Notes under the pieces: generated by a model
Database searches by the model: none
The model's input: only the letters and a program-made list of their open reading frames with translations
Told to the model about the DNA's origin: nothing
Source of the DNA: a virus
Direction: 5' to 3' (one strand)
DNA length: 64,000 nt
IMG/VR virus record: IMGVR_UViG_3300033802_000475
Position numbers and translations under genes: made by a program
Shown here: one piece after another, positions 10,214 through 28,240 of the stretch
How the letters are laid out: every line of letters starts with the position of its first letter
Numbering within the stretch: the stretch's first letter is position 1

Positions 10214-10307
10214 GGCGACATCCTGTGAGATTAAGCGCGCAAATGCGCGGGTAATCACCTGTGGCGAGGTGCAATATAACGCACTTGCGACGCATGTCAA
10301 GGGGGTT

Positions 10308-11841: not shown

Positions 11842-12162
11842 ATGATCAACATCCACGAATTCGCCGCCCGGCTCGAGGCCGCCGGCCACGTCGTCCAGTG
11901 GGGCTTCGACGGACCGGTCGCCCACAACCGTCCCGGCGACCCCGGGTGGTGGTGCAAAGTCGACGGGGAGGTGGCTGGCGAAATCAGGCCGCTGAAGCCG
12001 GGCGGATTCATTCCGATACTTCAGGAGGGGGGCAGCCGCGATGGCCGCATATTGCGTGAGTTACGACCTCAAAGTGCCCGGCAAGAATTACGGGCCATTG
12101 TACGAGGAACTCAAGAAGTCTCCGAACTGGTGGCACTACCTAGATTCGACCTGGCTGATTAG
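11842..12162 (+). CDS. Hypothetical protein
   Basis: 106-aa ORF; its 3' part overlaps the next gene, so the true end is uncertain. Confidence 0.35.
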   Translation: MINIHEFAARLEAAGHVVQWGFDGPVAHNRPGDPGWWCKVDGEVAGEIRPLKPGGFIPILQEGGSRDGRILRELRPQSARQELRAIVRGTQEVSELVALPRFDLAD

Positions 12163-12313
12163 CACCCGTGAGACGGCGGCGCAGCTTGCGGCACGTCTAA
12201 GGCGGCATATCGATGGCAACGATTATGTTCTTGTGATTGAGGTTCGGAACAACTCAGATGGCTGGTTGCCGAAGGAGGCGTGGGACTGGATCAAGCAGTT
12301 CGTGCCGGCATGA
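12041..12313 (+). CDS. Stand-alone Cas2/VapD-like ferredoxin-fold protein
   Basis: YCVSYDL...Y..LYEELKK...WWHYLDSTWLI...LRRHIDGNDYVLVIEV; Cas2-like xxYD N-terminal strand. Confidence 0.65.
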   Translation: MAAYCVSYDLKVPGKNYGPLYEELKKSPNWWHYLDSTWLISTRETAAQLAARLRRHIDGNDYVLVIEVRNNSDGWLPKEAWDWIKQFVPA

Positions 12314-12473
12314 CGGGCAACACCGAGTTATGCTGGTCGCGAGCGCAGTGAAGGAGACGTTGGCGAGGGGAGATCCCGTAGGAGGCCGGCGCGGGGTACG
12401 TCACGGAATAATAGCCGCGGCGGCCACCCACCACATGTGATTCGGCGCCCCGATCGAACTCGACCCGTCGATC

Positions 12474-12794
12474 ATGGGGGAGTACGCAGGCAAGCTCTAT
12501 CGGGCGGCGAACCGGATCGTGGTCGCCTCAACGCTGGCCGCGGGGAGTTTCGGACTCCTGATCGGCAGCATGTTCGTTAAAGTGCTTGGCGCAGGCATCC
12601 TTCATTGGGCAGTTGCGTTGACAGTGTTGTTCGGCTGGGTGGGCTGGGAGATCGGGCAGAGGTGGGCTTTTCATCTCCGGCTCCAGGCTCAACAGGCGCT
12701 CTGCCAGGTGCAGATCGAAGCGAATACCAGACGAGGGCGAACGGGCGAGACGGCAGACGAGCCGGCCGGCTACGAGCCTCGGTGGATACGCTGA
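12474..12794 (+). CDS. Two-TM membrane protein
   Basis: Two hydrophobic helices (IVVASTLAAGSFGLLIGSMFV; ILHWAVALTVLFGWVGW). Confidence 0.65.
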   Translation: MGEYAGKLYRAANRIVVASTLAAGSFGLLIGSMFVKVLGAGILHWAVALTVLFGWVGWEIGQRWAFHLRLQAQQALCQVQIEANTRRGRTGETADEPAGYEPRWIR

Positions 12795-13096
12795 GAACGC
12801 CGGAACGGTTTACGGCCGCGGAACTTGGTCGGGCCGAGATCCCGTGGAAGGAGATTCGTTGGGAAGTCCAACAGGCAATCTTGGACGCCTGGGGGGCCGG
12901 ACTGACAGCCTGTACGCGTTGATGATCGATTGCAATCTGCGCCTACGGCCCTGCCGGTCATGCGCGGTGTAACCCTCGCGTACAATCGAGCGGGGAGGGC
13001 CCCGGGCTCAACGGCAACGTCCTAGACCTACAAATCGGTACGACCGCCGTTCTGATTGGCAAAGAAAACAATTGGCGATGAAGATCTGGAGGTCGA

Positions 13097-13906
13097 ATGC
13101 CGGCGACTCATTACAAGATCTGGGGTTGGGGAGACTACTTAGAGCGCGGAGTGATGGGCTCCCGCCACGTTGGGGTCGCAGGAGTGGCGAAGAAGGCCAC
13201 AGAGGACCAACCTTTCGCAGTTGCAAACGAACTGATCTGTGGGTATCTCGCCAGGGTGCTCCTATTGCCGGTTCCGCCCGGCTTTGTTGTCGAGCGAGAG
13301 GGGGAGCCATATTACGTTTCCCTCAACTTCAACCTCGCGGGCCAGTCGCTGCCTCCGGCGAATCCCAGACGCCTCGTCGAGGATCATCCCCGGCTGGCCT
13401 GCGGAATTATCCTGTTCGACTGCTGGATTCTCAACCATGATCGCCACCCCGAGAATCTTGCGTACGACACCATATCTAGGCGTGTGCAGCTATTCGATCA
13501 CAGCCATGCGATTCTGCCAGCGGGTATGGGCGGTGAATGGCTGGACCACAATCGTGACAGGCTGGGGATTGGAGGCCATTGCCTCAAATCGGAGATCACA
13601 TCCCTCGATGGCATGAGGTATTGGTACGACCGGATCAATGCCGTGCCAGAGTATTATATTGAAGAGGTCGTACGGGCTGCAGCCGAAGTGGGGTTACCGA
13701 CGGAATTGGTCGGTTCTTGCACTGACTTCTTGCTGGAGCGGCGTCGAAACCTACTGACTCTCGTGGCCGCGCACAGGGGCGAGTTCCAGCAGCTGCAGCC
13801 AGAACTTTGGGAGATGCTCGAAGACGCAAGGGTGGAGGCGGACGCTCAGGACGAGGGCCAGCTAGCAGCAACTCTAGCGAATTCGTCCGGAGGTGACGAT
13901 GAGTAA
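13097..13906 (+). CDS. HipA-like (PI3K/PI4K superfamily) kinase
   Basis: VAKK, ANELICGYLA (alphaC Glu), FDCWILNHDRHPENL catalytic loop, LFDHSHA. Confidence 0.85.
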   Translation: MPATHYKIWGWGDYLERGVMGSRHVGVAGVAKKATEDQPFAVANELICGYLARVLLLPVPPGFVVEREGEPYYVSLNFNLAGQSLPPANPRRLVEDHPRLACGIILFDCWILNHDRHPENLAYDTISRRVQLFDHSHAILPAGMGGEWLDHNRDRLGIGGHCLKSEITSLDGMRYWYDRINAVPEYYIEEVVRAAAEVGLPTELVGSCTDFLLERRRNLLTLVAAHRGEFQQLQPELWEMLEDARVEADAQDEGQLAATLANSSGGDDE

Positions 13907-14759
13907 AGTAGCGACATACTTCATCGCCCAGTACGTGCCGGACCTTTTCAGGCGGGAGCCGAGAAACATCGGTGTATTGGTCGAGAAGGATGGGCGGGTC
14001 GCCGCCCAGTTCCTCGGCGAGATTCAGCCTGGCGAACTCGACGGCAGGAAACTTCGAGGGTTCGACTACCCGCATGTTTACCGTCAGTGGGTAGAGTACT
14101 GGCGAGACCAGGTTTATCGGGGGGATAAGGGTATCGAGACCGTCGTGCGGACCAGCCGCGATCATTACCGCGTAATTCACGGCGGAGAGTTGACCGATAC
14201 CGGAGAGGACTCGGTCGACAAGCTGGCTGCTTACTTGTACTCCCTACTGGTGTCGGAGGGCGGGTTCGCAAAAGCGATCGCGAACAGTGATGATGAAATG
14301 GCGGACGTGCGGTCCCCCAAGCTCGAGCAGGATGTGGAGTCTGCGTTCAAGAGGCTGAGCATTTTGGCGGGATCGCCTAACGACCTTTTGGTGCGCCATC
14401 CCATTCGGAAGAACGTTCAGTTGCGGGGCCGAGCCGTTGACATACACACGCCGGACTTCGTGCAAGAAAATGGACGGTTGTACGTAATGGAACTCGTGGA
14501 CTTCAGCACGAAACGCACCTCTCTGCCCAAAGAGCATGCCGGTCGGACCGCCTACATGTTCTCAGATTTGCGACGAGAGCACGCCCATATAGACCCGATC
14601 GCTATCGTCCAGCTACCGGATTCTGGATACGAAAGCGAGGACGTATACTATGGCATGAAGATGCTCCGGGCGGAGTCAAACGTCGTAGTGTGGACAGATC
14701 CGGATGAGAAAGGCCGGTTCCTGCGCGAGCGCCACGAGATAGCGATGGCAGAGGCCTGA
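13899..14759 (+). CDS. DUF3037-domain protein (kinase partner) with C-terminal restriction-endonuclease-like domain
   Basis: YFIAQYVPDLFRREPRNIGVL matches the DUF3037 N-terminus; PDFVQENGRLYVME; overlaps the kinase stop. Confidence 0.75.
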   Translation: MSKVATYFIAQYVPDLFRREPRNIGVLVEKDGRVAAQFLGEIQPGELDGRKLRGFDYPHVYRQWVEYWRDQVYRGDKGIETVVRTSRDHYRVIHGGELTDTGEDSVDKLAAYLYSLLVSEGGFAKAIANSDDEMADVRSPKLEQDVESAFKRLSILAGSPNDLLVRHPIRKNVQLRGRAVDIHTPDFVQENGRLYVMELVDFSTKRTSLPKEHAGRTAYMFSDLRREHAHIDPIAIVQLPDSGYESEDVYYGMKMLRAESNVVVWTDPDEKGRFLRERHEIAMAEA

Positions 14760-14791
14760 TTCGCCCGATCACCGGACCATTATCTATCGCC

Positions 14792-14829
14792 CGAGGATGG
14801 CCTGCGGCTCCCGCTGTGGGCCATCCTCG
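14792..14829. terminator. Hairpin between convergent genes
   Basis: 11-bp inverted repeat CGAGGATGGCC / GGCCATCCTCG. Confidence 0.55.
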
Positions 14830-14917
14830 TTCCTCACCACACCCGTAACCCCGCTTCCCCCGCCACTTTGATCCGTCCCACCGTCGTCATCCGGGTCTCA
14901 AGCGCCTACGTCGCGCA

Positions 14918-15469
14918 CTAGTACGGCGCCCTTCGGCGCCCGAGCGCGTCGACCGGGGTAAGCGCGCCTGCAGGAATCACGTCGGCGCCGAGCCGGGTGA
15001 CCGCCGCTAGGTGCCCGAACCGGGGCACGTCGCAGACGACCAGCTCGCCGTCGAGCGCCCAACCGTCATCGCAGCGGGAGAGGTCTATGCCCCGGGCGAT
15101 CTCGGGGCGCCGCATCTCCGCGGAGTCCGCGGGACCGACGCGGAGGACGTCTAGACGTCCCGACCGATCGGCGACGGCGCCGACGATCACCGGGACCTCC
15201 CGGACGTCGATGACGGTGTCCACCCGCTCGATGACGACGGGCGCGCGTTCCTCGAGGCCGCGGATCCGGGCGCGGAGCTGGTCGACGAGCCCGTCGCGCT
15301 CCTGGAGGAGCGCCTCCAGCCGCTCGACCTCGGCTCTCCAGTGGTCGCCGGGGAGGGAGTCGACGACGGGGACCGCCGGCGGGGTGTAGGCGGGGCGGTC
15401 GGTAGAGCACCTACCGATCAGCACACCGAGGGCGAGAGCAGCGACGGTGGCGATCGAGAGGGACTTCAT
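14918..15469 (-). CDS. Membrane-anchored coiled-coil protein (spanin-like position, relic lysis module)
   Basis: N-terminal hydrophobic segment, coiled coil AEVERLEALLQERDGLVDQLRARIRGLEE; follows the amidase fragment. Confidence 0.55.
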   Translation of the reverse strand: MKSLSIATVAALALGVLIGRCSTDRPAYTPPAVPVVDSLPGDHWRAEVERLEALLQERDGLVDQLRARIRGLEERAPVVIERVDTVIDVREVPVIVGAVADRSGRLDVLRVGPADSAEMRRPEIARGIDLSRCDDGWALDGELVVCDVPRFGHLAAVTRLGADVIPAGALTPVDALGRRRAPY

Positions 15470-15670
15470 GCGCCCATCCATTCCCTGACGCCCTCGACGA
15501 TCGCGCGGGCGACCCTCGCGCGATGCTCGGGATCCGTCAGGCGCGCCCGGTCGTCCGGGTTCGTCAGGAACCCGAGCTCGACCAGGATCGCGGGCATCCG
15601 CGTCGCGCGGAGGACGTAGAGGCGGCGATTCCCGCACGCCGGCGACACGTCCGGGAACACCCCCGCAGAC
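15466..15670 (-). pseudogene. C-terminal fragment of an Amidase_3 endolysin
   Basis: GVFPDVSPACGNRRLYVLRATRMPAILVELGFLTN; 99/106 nt identical to 27095-27200; N-terminal Zn ligands missing. Confidence 0.85.
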
Positions 15671-15697
15671 CGCCCCGGGGACTCCACGGCAGCGGCC

Positions 15698-15859
15698 CGG
15701 GCGACCACCCTCCTGGTCGTCGGTGACCAGGACGGGAGAAAGGTCGGCAACGATGGCAAGAGCGGGAAACACCGTAAGGCGGAGGCCTTGATCGCACAAG
15801 GATACCCGATACGGATCGTGGGAGAGAGTGTGTTCATGGACCTGGTCGCCCCCGAATAG
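15698..15859 (+). pseudogene. C-terminal fragment of a BRCT domain (as in phage exonuclease-BRCT proteins)
   Basis: Manual translation RATTLLVVGDQDGRKVGNDGKSGKHRKAEALIAQGYPIRIVGESVFMDLVAPE*; no start or N-terminal part. Confidence 0.7.
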
Positions 15860-16002
15860 GTCGCCCCTCTTGTGTGTTGCATTATGCGAATGTTTCGCAT
15901 TTTGCAATACATCCACGCGCATGCCCCGGCCCTATGACCGCATGGCGCACGCCGCGTAACTCTCGTAATACCAACACGTTGCCGTAGTGGTGGGTGTGGG
16001 TG

Positions 16003-16032
16003 TTGACATGGTGGCACCACCTTTGCTATAAT
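16003..16032 (+). promoter_or_regulatory. Consensus sigma70-type promoter with operator-like palindrome in the spacer
   Basis: TTGACA (16003-16008), 18 nt, TATAAT (16027-16032); GGTGG-CA-CCACC at 16010-16021. Confidence 0.8.
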
Positions 16033-16103
16033 CCTGGGCGACGGTCGGGCGAGGGGCCCGGCCGCTGACTGGGCGAGGCGCCCACAGCACAGGAGACACA
16101 CCA

Positions 16104-16367
16104 ATGGCCACCACGATCCTTCTCCCCGTTGACCTGACCAAGGCGATCGAGTCGGATGCCCGCATCGTTCGGGCGGTCGTCTACGAGGACGGCTGGGTTC
16201 CGAACGCCTACCGCTACGCCGCCCCGGGCAAGGCGACGGTGGTGACTCGGGCCGAGGACGGCCGGATCGAGATCTCCGAGACGACCTACGATCGGAAGCG
16301 CTCCTACGGCCGCGGCCCGCGCTGGGTCGCCTTCAGCGCGAAGGGCGGGCGGCTGGCGAGCGCCTGA
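16104..16367 (+). CDS. Small hypothetical protein
   Basis: AGGAG RBS; first gene after the promoter. Confidence 0.75.
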   Translation: MATTILLPVDLTKAIESDARIVRAVVYEDGWVPNAYRYAAPGKATVVTRAEDGRIEISETTYDRKRSYGRGPRWVAFSAKGGRLASA

Positions 16368-16435
16368 GGTTGTGCGCCGTGGGCGCCGTTCGATGGGCGC
16401 CCACGGCCCGGTGAGTCAGCCCACGACCTACCACC

Positions 16436-16690
16436 ATGGAGGAAGAGATGCCGAATGAGGTTTGCGAGATCGTCGGGCGCTTTGCGCCGGGGAAGGAACC
16501 CGCTGGCTGGGACGGCCGCGATCCGAGTGCCGTCCTGTACGATGACGGTATCGCCGTGATGCGGCCGGTCGTCCGGGGCGGGATCTCTTGGGAGTACCAC
16601 ATCGGGACTTCTGACCCCGAGCGGGCGCGTCAGATTCTCGCCGACGAATGGGGTGAGGCGGAGGTCGTGGAATCGATTCCCACGGCCTGA
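16436..16690 (+). CDS. Small acidic hypothetical protein
   Basis: 84-aa ORF (start may be 16448). Confidence 0.6.
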   Translation: MEEEMPNEVCEIVGRFAPGKEPAGWDGRDPSAVLYDDGIAVMRPVVRGGISWEYHIGTSDPERARQILADEWGEAEVVESIPTA

Positions 16691-16766
16691 ATGAGGCAGC
16701 CCGGCGGCGCGAGGTGCGCCGTCTCGATCCGCGGAGCGAGGCGCTCCGCAATCCCGAGAGGAGACC

Positions 16767-17009
16767 ATGGCCTACTACAGCACCAGCACCCTCGTACCGA
16801 CCGAGGACGGCCCGTTGTTCGACGTTTTCGGCCCCGGAGACCTGATCGCCGGTGAGCCCGTCGAGTCCGAGGAACTCGCCAAGATCTGGACCGAGCTGCT
16901 CAGCCGGCGCGAGGGCGAGATCCAGGTGGCGTTGGATGCGGGAGACACCGCGACCGCGGATCGGATCTGGGCCGAGGTCGAGGAAGAGGCGCGACGGCAG
17001 GTCGCGTGA
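16767..17009 (+). CDS. Small acidic hypothetical protein
   Basis: GAGGAG RBS; 80 aa. Confidence 0.7.
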   Translation: MAYYSTSTLVPTEDGPLFDVFGPGDLIAGEPVESEELAKIWTELLSRREGEIQVALDAGDTATADRIWAEVEEEARRQVA

Positions 17010-17097
17010 ATGTCGGGCGTCGTCTGAGGTGGACGGCGTCGATCACCCGCCCGGCGAGGCGCCGGGCCCTACCGCCCGAGGAGGGCAGGAGGACGCT

Positions 17098-17973
17098 ATG
17101 TCGCACACGATCTATCATGTCCACGGCATTGGCGACGCGGCCCTAGACGGACTCCATGCTGCCAAGGTGAGGATGACGGCGGCGAGGGCCAGAATGATGA
17201 AGCAGCCGCCGATGCCGATCCCACCGCTTGAGATTCCTGAGCCTCCTGAGCTTCCGATGATTCGCGGCTGTGGGCTCGCGTGGTTGGGCTCATCGCGCAA
17301 CGCGACGGTTGTCAACCTCGTCGCGACCGACGAGGATGGGCGTACCGCCACAGGCAGCGTGGGGCGGACGATCCTGCGTATGCTCTCTCCCGCGGAGATC
17401 CTGGAGCTGACCCAACAGGCCGAGCGGATCGCCGACGAGCTCGAAGCTGCGGCCGACGCACGGGAAGCTGCGATCGATCGGATCGTGGAAGCCGCACTGC
17501 AGGATGCCGATCCCGCGATTCGTGCTCTTGCCGAGCGGATGTCGGCAGAGCGGCGCGCGGATGAGGAGCGAGTGGAGTGGATCCGCAAGTACGGCTCGCG
17601 GCGTCTCCAGCGAATGCTGGAGGAAGGCATCGAACACGCCGCCACATACCGTGATGAGCGGCTGGCGCTAGAACGGCCGGAATGGCGGTATATGAATCAT
17701 GTGCCCGGCCGGTACGAGGAGCCGCGTAATCCGCCGGAGACCGCATTCGACCTCCTCGACGAGGCGCGGAAGACGGCGCCGGACGCCCGCATCTTGTACT
17801 GGATGGTGGGGCGGTCGTGCGAGGACTGCGATGCGGGCGACTGTCCGGAGCACGGCGATGACCGCTGGGTTCGCGGCTACACGTGCATCGCTTCGTTCCT
17901 GGGCCGCGATATCGTGTTTCGCATGGCCGATGACGGCACCCCGCCGGTACTCCAGGGCGGAGGCAACGACTGA
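17098..17973 (+). CDS. Hypothetical protein
   Basis: GGAGG RBS, MSHTIYHVHG start; coiled coil; CxxCxxxxCxxH motif near the C-terminus. Confidence 0.7.
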   Translation: MSHTIYHVHGIGDAALDGLHAAKVRMTAARARMMKQPPMPIPPLEIPEPPELPMIRGCGLAWLGSSRNATVVNLVATDEDGRTATGSVGRTILRMLSPAEILELTQQAERIADELEAAADAREAAIDRIVEAALQDADPAIRALAERMSAERRADEERVEWIRKYGSRRLQRMLEEGIEHAATYRDERLALERPEWRYMNHVPGRYEEPRNPPETAFDLLDEARKTAPDARILYWMVGRSCEDCDAGDCPEHGDDRWVRGYTCIASFLGRDIVFRMADDGTPPVLQGGGND

Positions 17974-18073
17974 TCCATCCGATGGCGGGGTCCGGACCGG
18001 GTGAGTGGCGTCCCCGTTCCGGCGCGATGGGCCCTGGCGTGAGCCCGGCCCGCCCCGCGTAACCGCAACCCGG

Positions 18074-18111
18074 GGGTGTTCCCAATTTTCGGTCGAAAAT
18101 TGGGAACACCC
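18074..18111. repeat. 38-bp near-perfect palindrome (18-bp arms, 2-nt centre)
   Basis: GGGTGTTCCCAATTTTCG-GT-CGAAAATTGGGAACACCC, 20 nt upstream of the 18132 start. Confidence 0.95.
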
Positions 18112-18131
18112 ACCCCCATGAAGGAGCGAAG

Positions 18132-18623
18132 ATGTCCCCAACTCCCGGCAATCCCCGCGTGGTGTTCCGCGCTCCCGAGGGCGTACTGACCGAGATCCAG
18201 GCACGCCAGGAAGCGCTCTCGGCGCAGATGGGCGTCGGCGACGATGCCCCGCTCGGCTCGACGGCGCGGCGGGACCTGGAGCGGTACTACGCGATCGTGC
18301 GCGACGAGCTCCGCCAGCTCCCGCTCACGCGGAACGAGGTCCTCCTCGTTCTCGACGCCTTAAACGGCGTGCTCGTCGAGCCGCCGGAGATGTACCGCGG
18401 CGCCGTGTTGCTGGACGTGGCCGATCACATCCGGCTGAACGCGGCGGACGAGAAGTGGAAAGTCGACGCCGAGAGCTTGATGCGGCGACTGGAGACGCTC
18501 TCGCCCGGCACGCTCATGGCCCTCGTCGACCTGGCCGAGCGGTTCTGGTCGCGGGCGGACGAGGGCACGGACGCCGTGCTCCGCGACCTCGGGGTCCGGG
18601 CGTGGCTCGGAGGTCGGGAGTAG
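18132..18623 (+). CDS. Putative ribbon-helix-helix DNA-binding protein
   Basis: AAGGAG RBS; PRVVFRAPEGVLTEIQAR...STARRDLERYY fits a beta-alpha-alpha pattern; 4 nt upstream of the TnpB-like gene. Confidence 0.55.
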   Translation: MSPTPGNPRVVFRAPEGVLTEIQARQEALSAQMGVGDDAPLGSTARRDLERYYAIVRDELRQLPLTRNEVLLVLDALNGVLVEPPEMYRGAVLLDVADHIRLNAADEKWKVDAESLMRRLETLSPGTLMALVDLAERFWSRADEGTDAVLRDLGVRAWLGGRE

Positions 18624-18627
18624 GGCG

Positions 18628-19836
18628 ATGAGTTCGACGGCGCCGACGATCACCGCCCGGTGCGACCGGTGCGGGCTCGAGCGGGCGACGAAGCCGACGG
18701 CCGCGGGAGCGCCCCGTCTGCCGGGCGGCTGGAAGCGCATGGGCGAGCGCGTCCATTGTGACCGCTGCTGGCGCGCGTCGTACGTACTCCGCGCGATCAC
18801 CCTGCCGATCGCGGCGCCGCTCGAGGGGGACTGGAAGGAGCTGCGTGCGGCGCTTCACGCCTGCTGGTCGAACGCCACGCAGCTCGCGAACTGGGCCATC
18901 ACCGAGCTGGTGAAGGCCGACGTCACACGGACGCCGGACTTGGAGAAGCTCCCGCCGATGCCGCGGGTCTATCTCTACCCTGGCGCCCGGGCGATCCTGC
19001 CCGGCATGGACACGAGCTCGATCGTCTCGCTGCTCCAGGCCGTGGAGCAGCGGTACCGGAAGGCACGCTTCGACGTGATCTGGCGACGTGCGGCCTCTCC
19101 GCCGAGCTTCCGCTACCCCATGCCCTACCCGGTCCACAATCAGCGCTGGAGCATCCGCGAGGAGGAGGGACGGGGGCTGATTCTCTCGGTGCCGCTTGCC
19201 GGTCGGCGGTGGGACCTGGTGCTCAAGACCGGCGGCCGTGGGCGCCAGCGCGCGGCTGTGCGGAAGCTGATCGCCGGCGAGGCGGCGGCGGGCGAGCTCG
19301 CGATCTACGAGCGCGGCTCTAATGTCATGGCCAAGATGGTGCTGTGGCTCCCGCGCGAGGATCGCAGGCGTGATCGCTCGGGTACGCTCTACGTCCGCAC
19401 GGTGGAGGACGCGGTCTGGGAGTACCGCATCGAGGACGGCGAGCCGCACTACCTGTATGCCGACCACGTGCGGCAATGGCTCGCCGCCTACAGGCGGCGC
19501 TCGGAGCGGGCCGCGCGCGACCTCAAGCACGAGAAGCGCTGGCCCGCCAAGGTTCGCCGCCGCCAGCTCGAGGACCTGGAACCGATGCGCCGGAAGCATC
19601 GGGCACGGATGGACACCTGGACCCACGAGGCGACGGCGATGCTGGCCGGCTTCGCGGATCGCTCGCGGATTGCGTGCGTGGTATACGACGACCAGGTTAC
19701 GAGCTACGCAGATCTCCCGTGGCACCAGCTCCGGGAGCGGCTGGAGTACAAGCTGGACGGGCTCGGGATCGAATTCGTCCATGCGAAGGGCGAGGCGGTC
19801 GCGGAATCCGCCACGCCGCTCGAAACCGCTGATTGA
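18628..19836 (+). CDS. Nuclease-dead TnpB/Cas12-like protein with N-terminal Zn finger
   Basis: WED-like AITLPIAAP, REC helix (LRAALHACWSNATQLANW), bridge/RuvC helix RKHRARMDTWTHEATAMLAGFA, RuvC-II-like VVYDD, LEYKLDGLGIEFV; RuvC-I GxDxG replaced by TLYVRTVED; ends before RuvC-III; CDRC..CDRC at the N-terminus. Confidence 0.75.
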   Translation: MSSTAPTITARCDRCGLERATKPTAAGAPRLPGGWKRMGERVHCDRCWRASYVLRAITLPIAAPLEGDWKELRAALHACWSNATQLANWAITELVKADVTRTPDLEKLPPMPRVYLYPGARAILPGMDTSSIVSLLQAVEQRYRKARFDVIWRRAASPPSFRYPMPYPVHNQRWSIREEEGRGLILSVPLAGRRWDLVLKTGGRGRQRAAVRKLIAGEAAAGELAIYERGSNVMAKMVLWLPREDRRRDRSGTLYVRTVEDAVWEYRIEDGEPHYLYADHVRQWLAAYRRRSERAARDLKHEKRWPAKVRRRQLEDLEPMRRKHRARMDTWTHEATAMLAGFADRSRIACVVYDDQVTSYADLPWHQLRERLEYKLDGLGIEFVHAKGEAVAESATPLETAD

Positions 19837-19952
19837 CAATCTGTTGCGCCACCGCCAGGCGCAGTGTGAGTCGCCACCGGCGCAGAGCCGCCGGGCGGCG
19901 CTCGCAGGAAGGCCGATAACAGTCTGGGATATGCGGCGTTACGCCGCCGGCC

Positions 19953-20247
19953 CCGGAAGCCGACTCTCGGCGAGTCAATGGGTTGCGGCAGCGACGTCAT
20001 GGGCGCACTCGAGGCGCTTGCCACCCCCGGAAGCCGACTCTCGGCGAGTGTGTGGCTGCGGCCCGCTGACCTCGCGATCGACGCTGCCGGAGGCTGACTC
20101 CCGGCGAGCAAACGGCTGCGGCTTCCACTTGATCTCCCCTTACGGGCGCACATGCTCGCTGCGAGCCGATTCTCGGCGAGACAGCGGTTGCGGCCGCCGA
20201 TCGATCTCACGATCCGGATGTCGTGACTCGGCGAGGGGGTTGGTCAC
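19953..20247 (+). CRISPR. Degenerate mini CRISPR-like array (4 full repeats plus 1 degenerate)
   Basis: Repeats at 19953-19989, 20027-20062, 20087-20122, 20159-20194 and ~20214 (degenerate); consensus CCGGAAGCCGACTCTCGGCGAG-N5/6-GG(T/C)TGCGGC; spacers 37, 24, 36 and 19 nt; strand inferred from the upstream gene. Confidence 0.75.
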
Positions 20248-20947
20248 GTCCCAGTCCCTGTCGCGATCGAGACGCCGAACGATAGTTCATCGCGCCACCA
20301 CCGGGCGCAGAGCGAGACGACGGCCTTCGCGGCGTCGGTGCCGTCGCTCGCGAGAAGGCCGAGAACAGCCGACGATACGGGGCGTAATGCCTCCGGCCGT
20401 CGGGGCGTACTGTCGGTTGGACGGACGTCGTGGCGGTCCAGTGGAATCCCACACGCCGAGGCGCAACGCCTTTGGGGGGGGGGCGTTGGGACGAACTGGT
20501 GAGCGTTGTGGCCTTGGCAGAGACATATCCATGCATACCCTCAAAGAGTACGCGGTCATCGCGGGTACGCCGAGACGCGGAAGGGTGCTGCGTTTCGTCC
20601 ACGCGTCGGGCGTGGATAGGCCCGATATAGATCGGCGCTACGGCCGAGGCCGTGACCACGGGCACGGGCCACAATGGATCGTCGAGACTGGACGACGCGA
20701 TGTGCGGCTCGGCGACGAGGTCGAGGCAGGCGAGGATGGTGTGATACACACCATCATAGCGAGAGCGACAGCCATGATCGTCCGCGGCACTGGACAACAG
20801 AGGCGCGAAGAGGGCGGATCGGGCGTGGGCGACCGCGGAGGCGAGGGCGCGCGGCGCGCTGCTGACCCGCGAGGGGGTCGAGGGGGCGGGCGCACAAGAG
20901 GCGCTCGCCGCCGAGCTCGACACAAAGCAGGAGCCGGTAAGCAAAGC

Positions 20948-21529
20948 ATGAAGAAGCGTGGCCCCAAACCGGATCCGCAGATCGCGGAACGGAACCGGTG
21001 TATCGCCACCCGCATTCAGCGAGGTGAACATCCTCGTGACGTCGCTCGCGACTTTGGTCTCAACGAGCGATACGTCTCTCGCATCTGCAAGGAGGTCACC
21101 GGATCGAGACCGAAGGAGCTTCGGGGTCTGCTGTGGCCTAGGGATCGGGTTATTAAGGCGCTCCGTGAGTGGACGGAACGGAACGGACGTCCGCCACTCT
21201 ACGTCGAGGCGAACGTGGCCGTGGATCTTCCGGCTGCAGAGACCATTATGCGCGCCCTCGGGCTGCGGTCATGGCTTCAGGTGTACGATTTCCTCGGATT
21301 TCCGGCGCCGGGGCGCAGGGGGCGAGGGATCTCCACAGACATCTCTCGAGGGGCACCGACCCCCGACGAAGTACGCATGGCGCGGACACGTTTGGGCACG
21401 TCCCCCAGCGACCTTGCGGCCATGCTCGGAGTCGAAGAGGGGGAATTGGAGGCGTGGGAAAGTGGTCGTGATCGCCCGGCGCCGTACTTGCGCCTGGCGC
21501 TCGCATACCTGTCTCTGCGTCGTCAATGA
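20948..21529 (+). CDS. Multi-HTH DNA-binding protein
   Basis: N-terminal HTH (HPRDVARDFGLNERYVSRI), middle WPRDRVIKALREWTERNGRPP (homing-endonuclease-associated-repeat-like), C-terminal Xre HTH (SPSDLAAMLGVEEGELEAWESGRDRP). Confidence 0.7.
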   Translation: MKKRGPKPDPQIAERNRCIATRIQRGEHPRDVARDFGLNERYVSRICKEVTGSRPKELRGLLWPRDRVIKALREWTERNGRPPLYVEANVAVDLPAAETIMRALGLRSWLQVYDFLGFPAPGRRGRGISTDISRGAPTPDEVRMARTRLGTSPSDLAAMLGVEEGELEAWESGRDRPAPYLRLALAYLSLRRQ

Positions 21530-21640
21530 CCTGAAGGAATCAGATCCACCCGACCCCTTCCTTAACTCCTTCGCCCCGTACAACGCATCCGGTGATCAGG
21601 GGACATTACTACCCGTGCGGTGTTGCGCGGGCGACCAGGC

Positions 21641-22699
21641 TCAGGCCGCCGCCTCGGTCCGCTCTCGGTTTACCGCGCGGTCGCATCGGTCCCGGGCCAC
21701 CCGGGCCCACTGAGGGCTCAGCTCAACCAGCAGCACATCCCTCCCGTGGCGGATCGCCGCCTCCCCGGTCGTCCCTGAGCCCGCGAAGAAGTCCGCCACC
21801 AGCTCCCCTGGCCGGCTGCTCGCCGTCACGATGTGCTGCATGAGCGCGAGCGGCTTCTCGCAGGGGTGTTTGCCGCGCCGGTACATCACCGGGTCGAACG
21901 TCCAGACGTCGGTGTAGGGGACGTCGGCCGTGACCCCGAAGGCGCGGCGCAGATTCGCCAAGGTCTCCCGCCGGCGCGCGTACTCCGCCTCCAGACGCCT
22001 GTACTCGGCCTCGAGCTCGTCGTACGGCCGGCTGAACACGCCGTCGGCGACGCGGCCGGCGAACGCCTCCCGGAGGGCTTCGTACGCGGCCCGGGGAATG
22101 AACGTCCACTGCGAGCGGCCGAAGTAGTGCCCAGCCATCCGCGTCCCGAGAATCCGGTTGCACTCGTCGAGCCCGACGCTGGCCCGAATACGCTCCCCGT
22201 CCAGGTAGCTACGAATCGGCTCGAAGACCTCGGCCCGGAGCAGCCGATCGGCGGCTCCGAAGGCCCGATCCGCCCCGAACTGCTCGGCGAAGATGATCCG
22301 CTCGGTCTGCGGGAAATAGGACCGCAGCGATTCCTTCCGGGCTTGGCGGTGGTGGCCGTGCCTCTTCACCCAAACGATGTCGTTCAGGATGCAGAAGCGC
22401 TCGGCGACCACGTTGCCGACCTCGCGGGCCATGCGAGGGCCGGCGAAGACGTAGAGGCTCCCGTTCGGCTTAAGCACGCGCTGCCACTGCTCGAGGAGCC
22501 GGTCGAGCCAGGCGAGGAATGCCCGGGGGCTGTCCCACTGCCGGTCCCAGGGTTCGTCCTTGACCCGGAAGTACGGGGGATCCGTCGCGATCAGGTCGAC
22601 GCTAGCGGCCGGCAGACTCTGGGAAACCTCAAGCGCGTCCGCCTGGATGACCTGGGCGCGGCCAGGCCGAAGGGTCTTCGGCGAATCTTCGGTGTCCAT
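21641..22699 (-). CDS. N6-adenine/N4-cytosine DNA methyltransferase (beta class)
   Basis: IATDPPY (motif IV) before HPCEKP and DFFAGSGTT (motif I). Confidence 0.92.
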   Translation of the reverse strand: MDTEDSPKTLRPGRAQVIQADALEVSQSLPAASVDLIATDPPYFRVKDEPWDRQWDSPRAFLAWLDRLLEQWQRVLKPNGSLYVFAGPRMAREVGNVVAERFCILNDIVWVKRHGHHRQARKESLRSYFPQTERIIFAEQFGADRAFGAADRLLRAEVFEPIRSYLDGERIRASVGLDECNRILGTRMAGHYFGRSQWTFIPRAAYEALREAFAGRVADGVFSRPYDELEAEYRRLEAEYARRRETLANLRRAFGVTADVPYTDVWTFDPVMYRRGKHPCEKPLALMQHIVTASSRPGELVADFFAGSGTTGEAAIRHGRDVLLVELSPQWARVARDRCDRAVNRERTEAAA

Positions 22700-22879
22700 G
22701 GCGGACAGCATAGCGTCCTGCGCCCGGTCTGTCCATGACCAGCTGGCCGTTGGAGGGCGCTGCGCTGAAGGTCGTCTCCTCCCGCTATTCCCTCGCCCCG
22801 CGCGCCCCAACACAATGCCCACGGACCCCGACCAGGAGGCACCGTGGGCTACGTCATGCTGGATTTCGAATCATCCTGG

Positions 22880-23647
22880 CTATCGTACCGCGATCCAAAA
22901 TCCGACCGCGCACCCTGCCGCCAGCGGCACCGGCGAGTTGAGCTCGAGGCTGAGCCACCCGCCGGCGGCGCAGCTGGCGAGGGAGGCGGCCGGGCGGACC
23001 CACCAGAGGGCGGTCCCCTGGACGATCGCTGAGTCGCCGTCGAGCCGGAACGTCACCGGCGGTCGGACGCGGTAGCTCTCCCGCACCAGGTCGCCGTCCG
23101 AGCGCACGAGCCAGAGATCCGTCTCGCGGGTGCCGATCCGTCCGGAGCGCGCGAGGGCGATCGGCGACGGCCGCGGTTGCAGCGCGGGCGGGAGGCCGGA
23201 GTGCGGCTGTGCGAGGGCCGCGGAATCCCCGGGGAGACCGGCGGCGTCGGGCATCGCCGCGGCGGTGGGGAGCTCCGGAGTCGGGGAAGGGAGGGGGTCC
23301 CCGGGAGGGACACCTCCCGCCGTCCCGGGTGGGCGAGGCCCGGGTGCGCTGCGATCGAGGGAGGTGGCGAGCCGGTAGCCGGCGGCCTGGCAAAAGGCGG
23401 CGACGTCGCCGGCCGCGGCGTTCGCCGCGGTGGCGCGGGTCTCCGGTTCGACACGAGGGCGGACCATCGACTCGAGGAGCCCGACGTCGGGATCCGGCTC
23501 ATCCTCGACGATCGCCGCGGAGTCGACTTGGACGTCCCGATAGCGGGGCGCGCCCCCGTTGGGGTCCAGCCAGCCGAGAAGGTAGAGGAGACCTGCGACA
23601 AGGACGGCGCCGAGGGCGCCGGAGAGTATTCCGCGCGGAATGTTCAT
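22880..23647 (-). CDS. Membrane protein, possible spanin
   Basis: N-terminal TM (ILSGALGAVLVAGLLYLLGWL), Pro-rich linker, hydrophobic C-terminus; near the end of the late operon. Confidence 0.45.
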   Translation of the reverse strand: MNIPRGILSGALGAVLVAGLLYLLGWLDPNGGAPRYRDVQVDSAAIVEDEPDPDVGLLESMVRPRVEPETRATAANAAAGDVAAFCQAAGYRLATSLDRSAPGPRPPGTAGGVPPGDPLPSPTPELPTAAAMPDAAGLPGDSAALAQPHSGLPPALQPRPSPIALARSGRIGTRETDLWLVRSDGDLVRESYRVRPPVTFRLDGDSAIVQGTALWWVRPAASLASCAAGGWLSLELNSPVPLAAGCAVGFWIAVR

Positions 23648-24021
23648 TGGACACTCCCGGTGTCGAGGACCTCGAGTTCGAACGTATCGACCAGGTACGC
23701 CCCGGTGTCGGTCCGAACGCGGCACCACACGACGTAGACCCCGGCCGTTTGCTCTCCCGCGCCTCGCCGCTTCTTTGTCCATAGGACTCGAGTCCCATTG
23801 ACCTCGGGATTTCCGGCGAGGAACTGCTTCGTCACATCGGACCAGGGCCCGCCCGGCACGAACCGCCGGCGCTCCCAGTCGTACGTCCGCGTCGCGCCTC
23901 GCGACACCCGCACCTCCGGAGTCCCCTGAAGCGTCGCGTCGCCAAGGTCGGCGAGGGCGCCGGCGAAGTCGCTTCCGAGGACGATCTCGGCGTCTGCGTG
24001 GACGGTGATCACCTGATGCAT
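23644..24021 (-). CDS. Hypothetical virion-associated protein
   Basis: MHQVITVHAD start; beta-rich. Confidence 0.6.
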   Translation of the reverse strand: MHQVITVHADAEIVLGSDFAGALADLGDATLQGTPEVRVSRGATRTYDWERRRFVPGGPWSDVTKQFLAGNPEVNGTRVLWTKKRRGAGEQTAGVYVVWCRVRTDTGAYLVDTFELEVLDTGSVQ

Positions 24022-24023
24022 GG

Positions 24024-25349
24024 CTAGTTCGCCGTGTGGATGCGCGAGCTCGAGCTCGCGCGGTGGAACCGGGTGCCGGCGGCCGCCCCGTGGATCCGCA
24101 CCGGCGCGGCCGCGCGATGGATGTGTTCGGGGCGAGCGACCAGCGCGCCGCCGAGCAGGACGCTGTCCGCCAGGTGGCGGTGCCCCGAATCCGCCACCGC
24201 CAGCGCGTGCGCCTGCGTGAGGCTGAGGGCGCCTGCGAAGTGCGCGTGCAGCGCCTCCTCGACGACGAGGAGCCCCGGCCATGCGAGCTCGGGGGCTTCG
24301 GCCGCGTGGGCGTGGAGTGCGTCAGCCACGGCGAGCCGGTTCGCCTGCGCGAGCGTGAGATCCTCCGCCGCGTGCGCGTGCCGCGCCCGGTCGACCGCGA
24401 GTACGCCGGCGGTCGCCAGCGTGGGCGCGTCGGCGCCGTGGCCATGGAGCGCGTGCACCGGATCGAGGACGTGCGCCTGGGTCAGCGCCGGCGACCCGGC
24501 GGCGTGCCCGTGGCTCGCGCCTGCGGCGGTCAGGATTGCGGACTGCGCGAGTGCGGGCTCCTCGGCCGCCTGCCCGTGGGCGGCTGAGGCGACCCCAAGG
24601 ACGTGTGCCTGGGCGAGCGCCGGGGACTCGGCCGCGTGCGCATGGGCGGCCTCGGCGGGCGCGAGTTCGACAGGTTCGTCGCCGCCCTGCGGGGGCTGAT
24701 AGCTCGCGGCAACGATCGAGCAGAGGCGTGCCACGGCGTCCTGCTGAATCCACCCCACGGTGACGTTGGCCGCGCCGGGAGCGGCGCCGATCTGCTGCAG
24801 ATCGCTCGATGCCTCTGTGGCGAGGACCGTTTGGTTGGAGCTCGCGATATGGGAACCGAGGCTGCCGTTCGCGACGAACGTGGAGAGGATCAGGTCCCCA
24901 TCCGCGCTGGGGACCGCGACCTCAATCACCGGATCGCCGCTCGTCGTGGTCTTCTGCAGCGCCTGGGGCGACCCCGGCCGAACGGGCGCGACTTGGTCCA
25001 CGTCGGCCAGGATCGTCACCCCGATCTCGAGCTCGCCGTCGTCGAGCAGCTGCACGTCGGCGAAGTACGTCGTGCTCGGATCCAGGCCCCGGAAGATCCA
25101 TTGCTCGACCCAGTGCGGCGCATCGCCTCCGGGGTGAGAGCTGACGACCCGAGCCGCATCCGTCCCCGAGCCGAAGGCCCCCCCGGTGCGGATCCGGACC
25201 CACGCCACGCCCGCACTCGCTACGTCGGCGCAGTAGACGTGCACGACGAGGCACCCATTGACCAGCCCCGCCGGGGTCGTGGCCGAATGGGTGCCCTGCG
25301 TCGCTGTGCCGATTCGCAGGATCGACGGGGTGCCGACGACCTGGGGCAC
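24024..25349 (-). CDS. Putative tail fibre/virion protein with 22-aa HxH repeats
   Basis: Beta-rich N-domain followed by about 7.5 repeats of 22 aa (xHAHAAExPxLAQAxxLxVxxA). Confidence 0.65.
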   Translation of the reverse strand: MPQVVGTPSILRIGTATQGTHSATTPAGLVNGCLVVHVYCADVASAGVAWVRIRTGGAFGSGTDAARVVSSHPGGDAPHWVEQWIFRGLDPSTTYFADVQLLDDGELEIGVTILADVDQVAPVRPGSPQALQKTTTSGDPVIEVAVPSADGDLILSTFVANGSLGSHIASSNQTVLATEASSDLQQIGAAPGAANVTVGWIQQDAVARLCSIVAASYQPPQGGDEPVELAPAEAAHAHAAESPALAQAHVLGVASAAHGQAAEEPALAQSAILTAAGASHGHAAGSPALTQAHVLDPVHALHGHGADAPTLATAGVLAVDRARHAHAAEDLTLAQANRLAVADALHAHAAEAPELAWPGLLVVEEALHAHFAGALSLTQAHALAVADSGHRHLADSVLLGGALVARPEHIHRAAAPVRIHGAAAGTRFHRASSSSRIHTAN

Positions 25350-25357
25350 GAACTACC

Positions 25358-26341
25358 TCACCCCCACCCCGGATCCGAGATCCAGATCCGGAAGTCGTCG
25401 ACGTAGAAATCGGTGTCCTCGAGGAACCGGCCGTTGTCGTACCCGAGGAGGTAGCCGGAGCAGAGCACATTCTCGTGCCCGGCCGGCGCCTCATTCGCGT
25501 CGTTCGGCACGTCGACGATCAGCCGGTCGTCGAGCCACAGGCGCTCGAGCCCGTTCGCCTTCCCGGGGTCGGAGAGCCGGACGTGAGCTCGGGCCCGGAG
25601 CCAGCGGCCGCGGTGCGAGGCGTCGATCGCCGGGCCGCCGTTGCCGGGGACGCGGGGGTAGTGCTCCAGCGGCCGGTTCGGCTCCGTGCGGCAAACGTTG
25701 AGCGTCGAGCCGCCGTTCCCGTCCGCCCAGGTCTGAAACGTCACCGCCGGCGGCTGGCTGTAGCCGGACGGCCCCCACAACGCGAGGAACTTGTTGTTGT
25801 AGCTGCTGTTCCCGCGGTTGTGGTAGTAGTTCTCTGGGATCCGGACGTAGAACTCGATCCAAACCTCCCGCGCGGCCGGGAACAAGAATCGCTGCTCGCC
25901 CCACATATGCGTGTCGCCGTTCGGCTCATAGGGACCGTAGCGGAACCGGAGCGAGCGACGGCCGCTCCGCGCGTACTCCGTCGCGACCTCGACGTACCGG
26001 GGCCCGACCCAGCGGAAGCCGTTCGCGCCGTGGTTGCTCAGCTTGCCGCCCACGGGGTAGCCCTCGAAGTCATCGACGAAGAGCGGCGTGACGACCGAGG
26101 GCGGCTCGGGCTGCGGTTCCGGCTCGGGTTCCGGCTCGGGCTTCGGCGTCGGCGCGGGGGTGTCCGCCTCGACCCGCACGACGTAGTCGTGGGTGTAGCG
26201 GACCGCGGCGCCGGGGTGTTCGGCCAGGGCGCGGAGTGACGATTCGACAGCCTCGCGCTCGGTCGTGTGCCGGGAGACCTCGGCCCCATCCACGAAGACG
26301 CGGTAGTAGCCGGATCCCTCGGCGGTCAGCTTGGGCGTCAT
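25358..26341 (-). CDS. Putative carbohydrate-binding or polysaccharide-lyase-like (beta-sandwich) protein
   Basis: PEPEPE linker; FVDDFEG...SLRFRY...EVWIEFYVRIP...NNKF...ERLWLDDRL...YVDDFRI pattern of LamG/lyase-like folds. Confidence 0.55.
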   Translation of the reverse strand: MTPKLTAEGSGYYRVFVDGAEVSRHTTEREAVESSLRALAEHPGAAVRYTHDYVVRVEADTPAPTPKPEPEPEPEPQPEPPSVVTPLFVDDFEGYPVGGKLSNHGANGFRWVGPRYVEVATEYARSGRRSLRFRYGPYEPNGDTHMWGEQRFLFPAAREVWIEFYVRIPENYYHNRGNSSYNNKFLALWGPSGYSQPPAVTFQTWADGNGGSTLNVCRTEPNRPLEHYPRVPGNGGPAIDASHRGRWLRARAHVRLSDPGKANGLERLWLDDRLIVDVPNDANEAPAGHENVLCSGYLLGYDNGRFLEDTDFYVDDFRIWISDPGWG

Positions 26342-26354
26342 GGGGTTCGTCTCC

Positions 26355-26735
26355 TCACTGGGGGTCCGAGATCTCCACGCTCCACGCCGGCACGGTCACC
26401 GTGCCGCCCTGGGTCAGGGACTGCGGCGTGCAGGTCGTCACGTAGAGCAGCCGGGAGTTGATCGTGTCGGCGAGCACGACGTGGTCGGCCTCTCCCGTCG
26501 CCGTGATCGGGATGTCGGCCTGCTGCGCGATCGTGATCTTCCGGCCCGAGACGTCGCCGTTGCCGATCACGAAGTCCCCGTTCCCGGCGCCGGGGGTCAG
26601 CTCCACGTCCGCCAGCGCCACCGCGGCGATCGCGGCGAAGTTCGCGGGCTCGTCGCTGCAGACGTAGAGGCGATTCGCCTCCGCGATCCGCTCGAGCGTG
26701 CCGTCCAGGGTGTAGTCCGGTGCGGCCTTCGGCAT
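26355..26735 (-). CDS. Conserved phage tail-associated protein
   Basis: 126-aa beta-rich ORF; GGAG RBS. Confidence 0.65.
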   Translation of the reverse strand: MPKAAPDYTLDGTLERIAEANRLYVCSDEPANFAAIAAVALADVELTPGAGNGDFVIGNGDVSGRKITIAQQADIPITATGEADHVVLADTINSRLLYVTTCTPQSLTQGGTVTVPAWSVEISDPQ

Positions 26736-26736
26736 C

Positions 26737-26982
26737 TCAGTCCCCCTTCCGGTTCATGTTCTTCGCCGCGTGCGCCGCCGTCTTCGGCCGCACGACCGCC
26801 CCGCGCACCACGCGCTCGCCGGTCGGCACCTCGCCGGCGAGATCGCGGGCCCATCCGCGCGCGCACCACGCGGAGCCGCAGGCATCCGAGACCGTCACCC
26901 GATCGCCGGCCTCGAGGTCGTAGTGGCGTCCGGTCACGGGGTCTCGAGACCGGAGTCGCGTCTCCAGGATCTCCACCTTCAT
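26737..26982 (-). CDS. Small hypothetical protein
   Basis: 81-aa ORF in the late operon. Confidence 0.6.
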   Translation of the reverse strand: MKVEILETRLRSRDPVTGRHYDLEAGDRVTVSDACGSAWCARGWARDLAGEVPTGERVVRGAVVRPKTAAHAAKNMNRKGD

Positions 26983-27002
26983 CGGTCTCTCCGGGGCAGG
27001 GG

Positions 27003-27560: not shown

Positions 27561-27561
27561 G

Positions 27562-28092: not shown

Positions 28093-28113
28093 GCCTCCGG
28101 GGGTGGATGAAAC

Positions 28114-28162: not shown

Positions 28163-28240
28163 CCAGGCCGTCTATATGGGGCGGGCCGACGCCCGCCTAA
28201 CCTACTACCAGTCTAGTGCGTGTGGGGATCCGACGCAACA

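Follow-up and report, generated by a model that had tools for sequence, protein, structure and literature searches.

The 64-kb stretch of DNA analysed here (hereafter, the window) constitutes most of the 70.7-kb linear virus record IMGVR_UViG_3300033802_000475 and contains a compact module in which the gene for a 402-amino-acid Cas12f-like protein (the effector) is followed by two units of presumed guide RNA. Each of these units begins with a copy of a scaffold resembling a trans-activating CRISPR RNA (tracrRNA); the first copy precedes a short array of interspaced repeats, and the second a single repeat-like unit (Table 1). The virus record, with an estimated CheckV completeness of 95% and a G+C content of ~70%, belongs to a tailed phage, with PHROGs matches that include the terminase large subunit (E 9e-218), portal, head protease, major head protein, tape measure and tail proteins. 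The phage is also temperate: the left end of the record, which the window does not include, encodes a tyrosine integrase (E 2e-45) and contains an excisionase-like open reading frame (ORF). The same DNA is present in phyllosphere and mixed-culture metagenomes.

Table 1. Coordinates of the module and of adjacent features in the window.
Feature	Position	Strand	Remarks
Sigma-70 consensus promoter	16003-16032	+	TTGACA, 18 nt, TG-TATAAT; 12 of 12 matches, 0.0 expected in shuffles
Upstream ORF, 163 amino acids, no family assigned	18132-18623	+	translationally close to the effector gene; not a conserved partner
Predicted nuclease-dead Cas12f-like effector, 402 amino acids	18628-19836	+	zinc ribbon C12, C15, C44, C47; WED/REC; RuvC remnant; no TNB, no RuvC-III
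Scaffold copy 1, predicted tracr-like	19840-19952	+	model R1, 119.7 bits over 19823-19991; covariation
P1 hairpin of copy 1	19846-19862		loop ACCGCCA
Conserved stem of copy 1			CGCTCGC
Anti-repeat of copy 1	19923-19928		TCTGGG
Small hairpin of copy 1	19933-19947		
Array, judged to be decaying	19953-20249	+	repeat search and sequence reading
Repeats 1-4	19953-19989, 20027-20062, 20087-20122, 20159-20194	+	
Degenerate fifth repeat	20214-20249	+	
Spacers 1-4	19990-20026, 20063-20086, 20123-20158, 20195-20213	+	37, 24, 36 and 19 nt
Scaffold copy 2 with one repeat-like unit (20397-20434)	20277-20434	+	~70% identical to copy 1; model R1
Presumed single guide of copy 2	20435-20462	+	end of the model match
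Gene for a helix-turn-helix (HTH) protein, 193 amino acids	20948-21529		just downstream of the module
DNA methyltransferase gene	21641-22822	-	PHROG match, E 5e-71

A Cas12f-like effector with a lost catalytic site

An earlier annotation made from the letters of the sequence alone (hereafter, the sequence-only reading) had described the effector as a nuclease-dead TnpB/Cas12-like protein. The ORF is indeed present, but the start given for it, position 18132, is that of the upstream 163-amino-acid ORF. The motifs listed for the protein were found where they had been placed, namely, CDRC at residues 12-15 and 44-47, GTLYVRT at 252-258, VVYDD at 351-355 and YKLDGLGIEFV at 374-384. Family searches with the single sequence yielded faint matches, to guided_TnpB of NCBIfam (E 4.6e-4, below the cut-off of that family), to a PHROG annotated as 'transposase' (E 0.008) and to the Pfam Cas12f1-like TNB profile, of which the first 21 positions alone were aligned (E 0.35).

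The fold of the protein was predicted with AlphaFold2, using 60 relatives as the alignment, and the model reached a mean predicted local distance difference test (pLDDT) score of 92.7. In a Foldseek search of the PDB, this model retrieved AsCas12f first (E 3e-18), followed by the natural nuclease-dead Cas12f (dCas12f) of entry 9n9c (E 2e-16) and then by the Os, Sp, Cn and Un1 Cas12f, with TnpB appearing from E 1e-9. The ranking obtained with VIA-align was similar: model residues 52-397 were superposed on AsCas12f with a Z score of 25.0 (336 residues aligned), and residues 46-386 on the whole 365-residue chain of dCas12f with a Z score of 23.7, the values being lower for TnpB (16.8), Cas12k (16.3) and Cas12m (12-13). 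When the family profile was compared with the solved chains, it matched SpCas12f1 (E 3e-9, profile positions 63-403), OsCas12f (E 5e-9) and AsCas12f (E 6e-7), and lies nearer to active Cas12f than to dCas12f 9n9c (E 2e-4). Residues 1-50 correspond to a four-cysteine zinc ribbon that is found in 50 of the 60 family members and aligns to no solved Cas12f chain. The structure prediction, which the sequence-only reading had named as a check, thus yields a Cas12f-type RuvC-like fold, and the identity proposed there is borne out, except that the nearest relatives are Cas12f rather than TnpB, TldR, Cas12k or Cas12m.

The profile alignment to the solved Cas12f chains brings the GVDLG motif of Cas12f onto LYVRT, so that the position of the RuvC-I aspartate is taken by Arg257; this position holds arginine in 41 of the 60 family sequences and aspartate in none. 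The position of the RuvC-II glutamate is occupied by Asp354, with aspartate conserved in 56 of the 60 members. The alignment stops where the TNB zinc finger of Cas12f starts, and the RuvC-III region is absent. Throughout the family, the tail that follows the last strand is short (median of 18 residues) and never contains a CxxC motif (0/60), and a TNB domain was found in none of the ten longer members (462-580 amino acids). Both the replacement of the RuvC-I motif and the termination of the protein ahead of TNB and RuvC-III, as claimed from the sequence, are therefore upheld. Because the RuvC-I aspartate is replaced by arginine and the entire TNB/RuvC-III part is missing, the protein is not expected to cut DNA. 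Fold, sequence homology and loss of the catalytic site jointly identify it as a nuclease-dead protein of the Cas12f/TnpB type or, more precisely, as a Cas12f homologue that, judging from its sequence, is unable to act as a RuvC nuclease.

Related loci share a gene-scaffold-array architecture

A word-based search recovered 68 metagenomic relatives of the effector, none of which has a Pfam domain, including one that is 92% identical at the protein level (L001; related loci are denoted by L numbers). An exhaustive search extended the family to 941 clusters at 50% identity with E <= 1e-3, 416 of them with E <= 1e-30. No homologues were found among 50,697 cultured phage records (INPHARED) or 72,556 plasmids (PLSDB).

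The comparison covered 43 related loci, taken from metagenomes, IMG/VR and a genome collection. The order of effector gene, scaffold of ~115 nt and clean array recurs in about 30 loci of phages and metagenomes (for example, L003, L005, L008, L009, L012, L015, L017, L025, L029, L032, L034 and L037), and in most loci with enough downstream DNA the array begins 112-135 nt past the stop codon; in L007, L010, L039 and L040, it is located ~900 nt downstream, behind another gene. The arrays consist of 2-16 repeats of 36-38 nt, which in many cases are perfectly identical, and of spacers of 35-37 nt, with a modal length of 36 nt and 122 unique sequences among 155. The repeats of L003 degenerate toward the far end, as in arrays with the leader at the near end. 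The architecture is constant, whereas the repeat sequences are completely different between loci. The sequence-only reading had named homologues without adjacent repeats as grounds for its refutation, and this check came out in its favour: in most loci with enough downstream DNA, arrays stand directly behind the same scaffold. No gene is conserved beside the effector across 44 loci, and the recurrent 'families' of neighbours turned out to be nothing other than shadow ORFs opposite the effector gene itself. In two loci, whole repeat-spacer units have been duplicated in tandem with identical spacers (L014, 2153-2336; L009, 6754-6859), which suggests that at least some arrays of the family expand by duplicating units and not by acquiring spacers.

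The scaffold covaries with the repeats

The stretch from the stop codon to the first repeat was aligned for 20 loci (alignment A3), and these 112-135 nt proved to be conserved across loci with unrelated repeats. Analysis of A3 with RNAalifold and a scan of column pairs identified four structural elements. The first, P1, is a 5-bp hairpin whose 7-nt loop is conserved, and the second is a conserved CGCGAG/CTCGCG stem. In the third, the predicted anti-repeat helix, the initial 5-7 nt of the repeat are paired to the bases immediately 5' of a conserved GATAT; the fourth is a hairpin formed within the repeat. The column-pair scan further revealed a predicted pseudoknot, in which the partner of the P1 loop is the terminal 4-6 nt of the repeat, adjoining the spacer. 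The partners of this pseudoknot change together from locus to locus (CCGC/GCGG, CCAC/GTGG, TCGCAA/TTGCGA, CTGCA/TGCAG and CCGA/TCGG). Across A3, 94.8% of the cells in paired columns can pair, compared with 78.1% in shuffles and 35-41% when the partners are slid against each other, and compensatory changes occur in 14 of the 23 pairs. The pseudoknot helix is paired in 98.7% of the cells, and each of its four pairs changes on both sides. It is because of this covariation with the repeats, at the anti-repeat and at the pseudoknot, that we denote the scaffold as tracr-like: it is predicted to be an RNA that pairs with the repeat at two sites, be it in cis or in trans.

The scaffold was then searched for with a covariance model, R1, that omits the pseudoknot. 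It was detected in all loci with sufficient DNA, including ten outside the training set of the model (L018, L019, L028, L002, L023, L004, L007, L010, L031 and L039/L040), and in two copies in L020. In the loci with a displaced array, the scaffold stands before the array and not beside the gene. In L002, L004, L019, L023 and L028, the scaffold is accompanied by one repeat, with no long array, and the RNAs of these loci are putative natural single-guide RNAs.

Two presumed guide units in the window

R1 matches the window exactly twice, at copy 1 and at 20277-20436, the latter with 83.5 bits (E 2e-19) over the full model length. The array behind copy 1 was recovered by a repeat search as five direct repeats of 70-100% identity, with starts spaced by 74, 60, 72 and 55 nt, in agreement with the repeats of 36-37 nt and the spacer lengths read previously from the sequence. 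Tandem Repeats Finder reported nothing at the array, because the repeat units are interspaced. The array is much less regular than one in working order would be. Repeats 1-4 retain their last nine bases, GGYTGCGGC, almost unchanged while the remainder drifts, and repeat 5 is devoid of this tail. The terminal TGCGGC of repeats 1-4 is predicted to pair with the P1 loop of scaffold copy 1.

The second unit, which is absent from the sequence-only reading, spans 20277-20462 and comprises a scaffold, a repeat and a guide. Each copy has a matched set of pairing elements of its own. In copy 1, loop ACCGCCA corresponds to tail GCGG, and anti-repeat TCTGGG to the repeat start CCCGGA; in copy 2, loop ACCACCG (20297-20303) corresponds to tail GTGG (20430-20433), and anti-repeat GCCGAC to the repeat start GTCGG. 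The two copies in one phage thus differ in a compensatory way, CCGC/GCGG in the former versus CCAC/GUGG in the latter. The guide of copy 2 is followed by a G+C-rich hairpin at ~20463-20492 (-18.4 kcal/mol; z -1.8, which is weak) with no T tract.

Several minor observations concern this unit. A run of ten G (20474-20483) in the loop of the hairpin behind the guide might be prone to slippage. The starts of spacer 3 (20120-20137) and of the copy-2 guide (20432-20449) show approximate reverse complementarity (78% over 18 nt), which is not significant alone; were it genuine, a single site would be addressed on both of its strands, one by each guide. Finally, L020 resembles the window in having two scaffold copies in tandem (1509-1687 and 1773-1942) behind one effector gene.

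Expression of the locus

A perfect sigma-70 consensus promoter with an extended -10 box is located upstream of the module and probably drives an operon that contains it; between 17900 and 20700, no consensus promoter or terminator was found. A TTGACA at the stop codon was set aside, there being no matching -10 box. The stretch was found in 17 phyllosphere metatranscriptome runs, and contigs of three RNA runs and one DNA run were placed on positions 12000-30000. In two of the RNA runs (X8 and X12), a single contig extends from 16048 to 22744 or 22811, with a remnant of Illumina adapter before 16048. The adjacent 22.8-28.1 kb are represented in the RNA runs by short, scattered contigs, and the DNA run is continuous there and breaks elsewhere. 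These contigs fit a transcription unit that starts from the consensus promoter and includes the effector gene, both guide genes and the downstream HTH gene. Such a unit is probably ~6.7 kb long and ends near 22750, inside the methyltransferase gene on the opposite strand.

Candidate targets

The first 13 nt of spacer 3 match exactly positions 2314-2326 of the virus record (G000; L049), ~1.8 kb before the start of the window. A match of this length was reached by none of 1000 shuffled guides, and for the remaining 29 guides, examined in five phage genomes, the results were like the null. The matched site covers codons 5-9 of a gene for a 146-amino-acid protein (1899-2339 of the record, minus strand), and the excisionase-like and integrase genes are located downstream of this gene, in the same orientation; in the protein database, no homologue of this protein was found besides itself. 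With 30 guides tested, the seed match is suggestive only as a lead to a target. Ungapped scans of the window guides against the 70.7-kb genome produced values equal to those of shuffled guides. In a BLAST search of the 122 unique spacers against all related loci and the phage genome, the sole match was obtained in L039. The complete 47.5-kb genome of a relative (G001) contains no self-target, and the guide of L004 has one match with 3 mismatches in its 7.9-Mb metagenome-assembled genome, as does the control. For published dCas12f, guides of 14-16 nt are sufficient for DNA binding, and off-target activity can arise from 11 bp (PMC13472631); the short spacers of the window could thus still work, and matches of seed length could matter.

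With regard to the match in L039 (413-442 and 4946-4988), a spacer agrees with a site on its own contig at 27 of 30 positions counted from the first base. The site is a palindrome, AACTGTCATCCGATGACAGTT, situated 50-78 nt upstream of a 621-amino-acid ORF that looks like a terminase large subunit; a search of IMG/VR found the palindrome in this contig only.

A putative RNA-guided DNA-binding module and alternative explanations

On the strength of the above observations, we consider it likely that the locus represents a self-contained, phage-borne, RNA-guided module of the natural dCas12f kind, which binds DNA without cutting it. Under this scenario, an operon transcribed from the promoter at 16003-16032 would deliver the effector and then two guide-RNA genes, each beginning with a ~115-nt scaffold that acts as a tracrRNA. 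The anti-repeat would pair with the first 5-7 nt of the repeat, and the loop of the first scaffold hairpin would form the pseudoknot with the 4-6 nt of the repeat that adjoin the spacer. Copy 1 would serve the array, with its four usable repeats and guides, and copy 2 would be a natural single-guide RNA. The protein, probably as a Cas12f-like dimer, would bind the guide RNAs and open matching double-stranded DNA beside a short motif; because it cannot cut, the bound complex would act as a roadblock or repressor. The likely targets would be other mobile elements or host genes and, possibly, one of the phage's own genes.

Several points weigh against this interpretation. Contigs from RNA libraries cannot show the strand, the transcript ends or processed small RNAs, and both mature CRISPR RNAs and the binding of RNA by the protein are steps that we infer. 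The covarying structure was derived from the same alignment (A3) that was used for counting, and single repeats fold no better than shuffled sequence as judged by folding energies. Neither BLAST nor the ungapped scan found a convincing target for the window guides in the phage's own genome, the 13-nt seed match of spacer 3 aside; an exact search for spacers 1 and 3 in IMG/VR identified no target; and blastn of the array against cultured phages and plasmids returned chance-level matches only. The spacer search suggested in the sequence-only reading has thus come back empty in all these collections and, because no target was found, the purpose put forward there, the silencing of host defence genes or competing elements, can only be inferred. 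Furthermore, the array in the window may be partly or wholly out of use: its repeats have diverged to 70-89% identity, its spacers are irregular in length (37, 24, 36 and 19 nt) and its fifth repeat has lost the tail, for which reasons we judge it to be decaying.

The same features, when set against the perfect repeats and 35-37-nt spacers of the relatives, are what one would expect, together with the lack of targets, if the module were a relic, that is, an effector and RNAs inherited from an ancestor with a working array and now without use. We hold this to be unlikely, given that the ORF is intact and has the closely similar relative in L001, the 9-nt tail of repeats 1-4 has been kept while the rest drifts, copy 2 retains matched loop/tail and anti-repeat/repeat pairs, and the locus, preceded by a perfect promoter, is represented in RNA libraries. 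Moreover, L013 and L002 have also reduced their repeats to tails, which agrees with the transition from array to single guide described in the literature (PMC10691335) rather than with decay. Quite improbable, in our view, is a role of the effector as an RNA-guided recruiter that brings a transcription factor or another enzyme to DNA. The closest characterised dead relative, dCas12f-sigmaE, does work in this manner (PMC13472631), the HTH protein encoded just downstream could be the passenger, and a gene with a weak Sigma70_r4 match lies two genes upstream of the effector in L001. However, no neighbour is conserved across the 44 loci, sigma region 2 (Sigma70_r2) was not found in the phage record, and no C-terminal extension replaces TNB as a docking site, the tail being as short as described above.

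According to a published report (10.1101/2023.06.24.545427), some cas homologues of viruses antagonise CRISPR immunity, and the effector could likewise be a decoy or anti-CRISPR protein that soaks up the guide RNAs of a host Cas12f or occupies their targets. A decoy would need to match the host RNAs, whereas the effector travels with its own scaffold and arrays, which coevolve locus by locus, such that we deem this explanation very improbable. Interspaced repeats in an intergenic region of a phage can also be an origin or a centromere, and the repeats could in principle be protein-binding DNA sites (iterons or a partition site), or else type IV-B guides, unrelated to the adjacent gene. To this we attach hardly any credence: the gene-scaffold-array order is kept in dozens of loci without csf genes within 3-5 kb, the repeat sequences differ completely between loci under the same architecture, and the compensatory changes between scaffold and repeat point to RNA pairing rather than to sites for a protein.

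If the locus is indeed an RNA-guided, non-cutting module, it is conceivable, albeit rather doubtful, that the phage uses it on itself as well as on rivals. A roadblock at the spacer-3 site would tune excision and integration and hence act as an RNA-programmed lysogeny switch, and the two scaffold/repeat pairs would provide orthogonal guide channels for one effector.

Relationship to known systems

The sequence-only reading had raised the possibility of an undescribed type V-like lineage. This was an overstatement, because natural dCas12f, some of them beside CRISPR arrays, have been published (PMC13472631; PMC10691335). The natural, C-terminally truncated dCas12f described by Hoffmann, Wiegand et al. 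(Nature 2026; PMC13472631; PDB 9n9c) are chromosomal transcription activators in Bacteroidota, and the same study includes a cluster located beside CRISPR arrays with a presumed repressive role. A census of TnpB and Cas12 had recorded Cas12f branches with altered sites and proposed a route by which the guides of dCas12f would have evolved: RuvC-III is lost, the array shrinks to half a repeat near the tracrRNA and the two fuse (PMC10691335). The range of guide forms across the loci analysed here matches this route. The present family resembles natural dCas12f in the Cas12f fold, in the C-terminal truncation that removes part of the RuvC site and in having guide RNAs that are encoded immediately behind the effector gene and would carry the guide at their 3' end, single-guide as well as array forms being represented. 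It differs from the sigma-E clade, in which rpoE, encoding a sigma-E with a C-terminal extension, is operonic, in having no sigma-E partner and no conserved neighbour. Unlike the chromosomal dCas12f of Bacteroidota, it is phage-borne, and its additional features are the N-terminal zinc ribbon and a tracr-like scaffold that is separate from the array repeats and coevolves with them.

Type V-F1 effectors (AsCas12f, SpCas12f1, OsCas12f and Un1Cas12f) provide the best matches in fold and sequence and share with the effector its miniature size and arrays that often lack adaptation genes; the two-site pairing with the repeat predicted for the scaffold would resemble that of their long tracrRNA. However, with its catalytic triad incomplete and the TNB zinc finger missing, the effector is, unlike Cas12f1, predicted not to be a nuclease. 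TldR proteins (10.1101/2023.11.30.569447; PMC13622181) are also small, nuclease-dead, C-terminally truncated RNA-guided repressors, some of them encoded by prophages, but they are direct derivatives of TnpB and rely on a single omega-RNA-like guide instead of an array, whereas the present family has arrays and the fold of the effector is closer to Cas12f than to TnpB (Z 25 vs 16.8). Cas12m (type V-M) binds without cutting, blocks transcription and is found on plasmids and in some prophages (PMC11656645), but with ~600 amino acids, a full RuvC/zinc-finger fold and no tracrRNA it is only a distant fold match. VIPR (10.64898/2026.10.15.759431) is similar in being phage-encoded RNA-guided silencing in conflicts among mobile elements. 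Identity with VIPR was rejected: VIPR reads a non-contiguous code of 5-nt GGYNN units, and the array in the window has repeats of 36-37 nt and contiguous spacers of 19-37 nt.

Thus, the kind of system, natural dCas12f, is already known, and the large phage-borne family is uncharacterised; the literature searched, with subscription journals outside its scope, contained no description of this family, its N-terminal zinc ribbon or its scaffold. The window is set apart by four features: an array that decays while its repeat tails persist, two scaffold/repeat pairs with mutually matched partners, its presence in RNA libraries and the seed match between spacer 3 and one of the phage's own genes. The family would represent the dCas12f trick in a different setting, with ~940 clusters seen here only in phage and metagenome DNA, equipped with its own helper RNA and small arrays and having neither adaptation genes nor a protein partner. 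Such a module would be a compact (~400 residues), multiplexed and cut-free DNA-targeting system. The loci display side by side the proposed stages from a CRISPR array to a single-guide RNA, and the window contains both forms. Should these modules turn out to act on competing phages, on the defences of the host or on the lysogeny genes of the phage itself, they would add a new layer to phage-phage and phage-host conflict.

Surrounding genes

Profiles of Cas1, Cas2 and the Y1 transposase (tnpA) have no match anywhere in the 70.7-kb phage record, which bears out and extends the initial statement that none of the three genes is adjacent to the effector. The 163-amino-acid ORF upstream of the effector had been labelled 'RHH-like'. 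This label has to be dropped, since the ORF can be assigned neither a family nor a fold: there was no match in Pfam, PHROGs or NCBIfam and no convincing match in the Atlas. Its homologues adjoin the effector in only 2 of the 44 related loci (L011 and L013). Beyond the HTH gene, the DNA methyltransferase gene is convergent with the effector operon, and the RNA contigs extend into it. In the relative L001, genes for Csf3 and PAPS_reduct proteins are located ~3 kb upstream of the effector. Elsewhere in the window, in the regions 9522-11286 and 13097-13906, an HTH protein is encoded beside an ORF for an IrrE/ImmA-like Peptidase_M78 protein, and the two could form a lysogeny switch pair; an ORF for a HipA-like kinase is found in the same regions.

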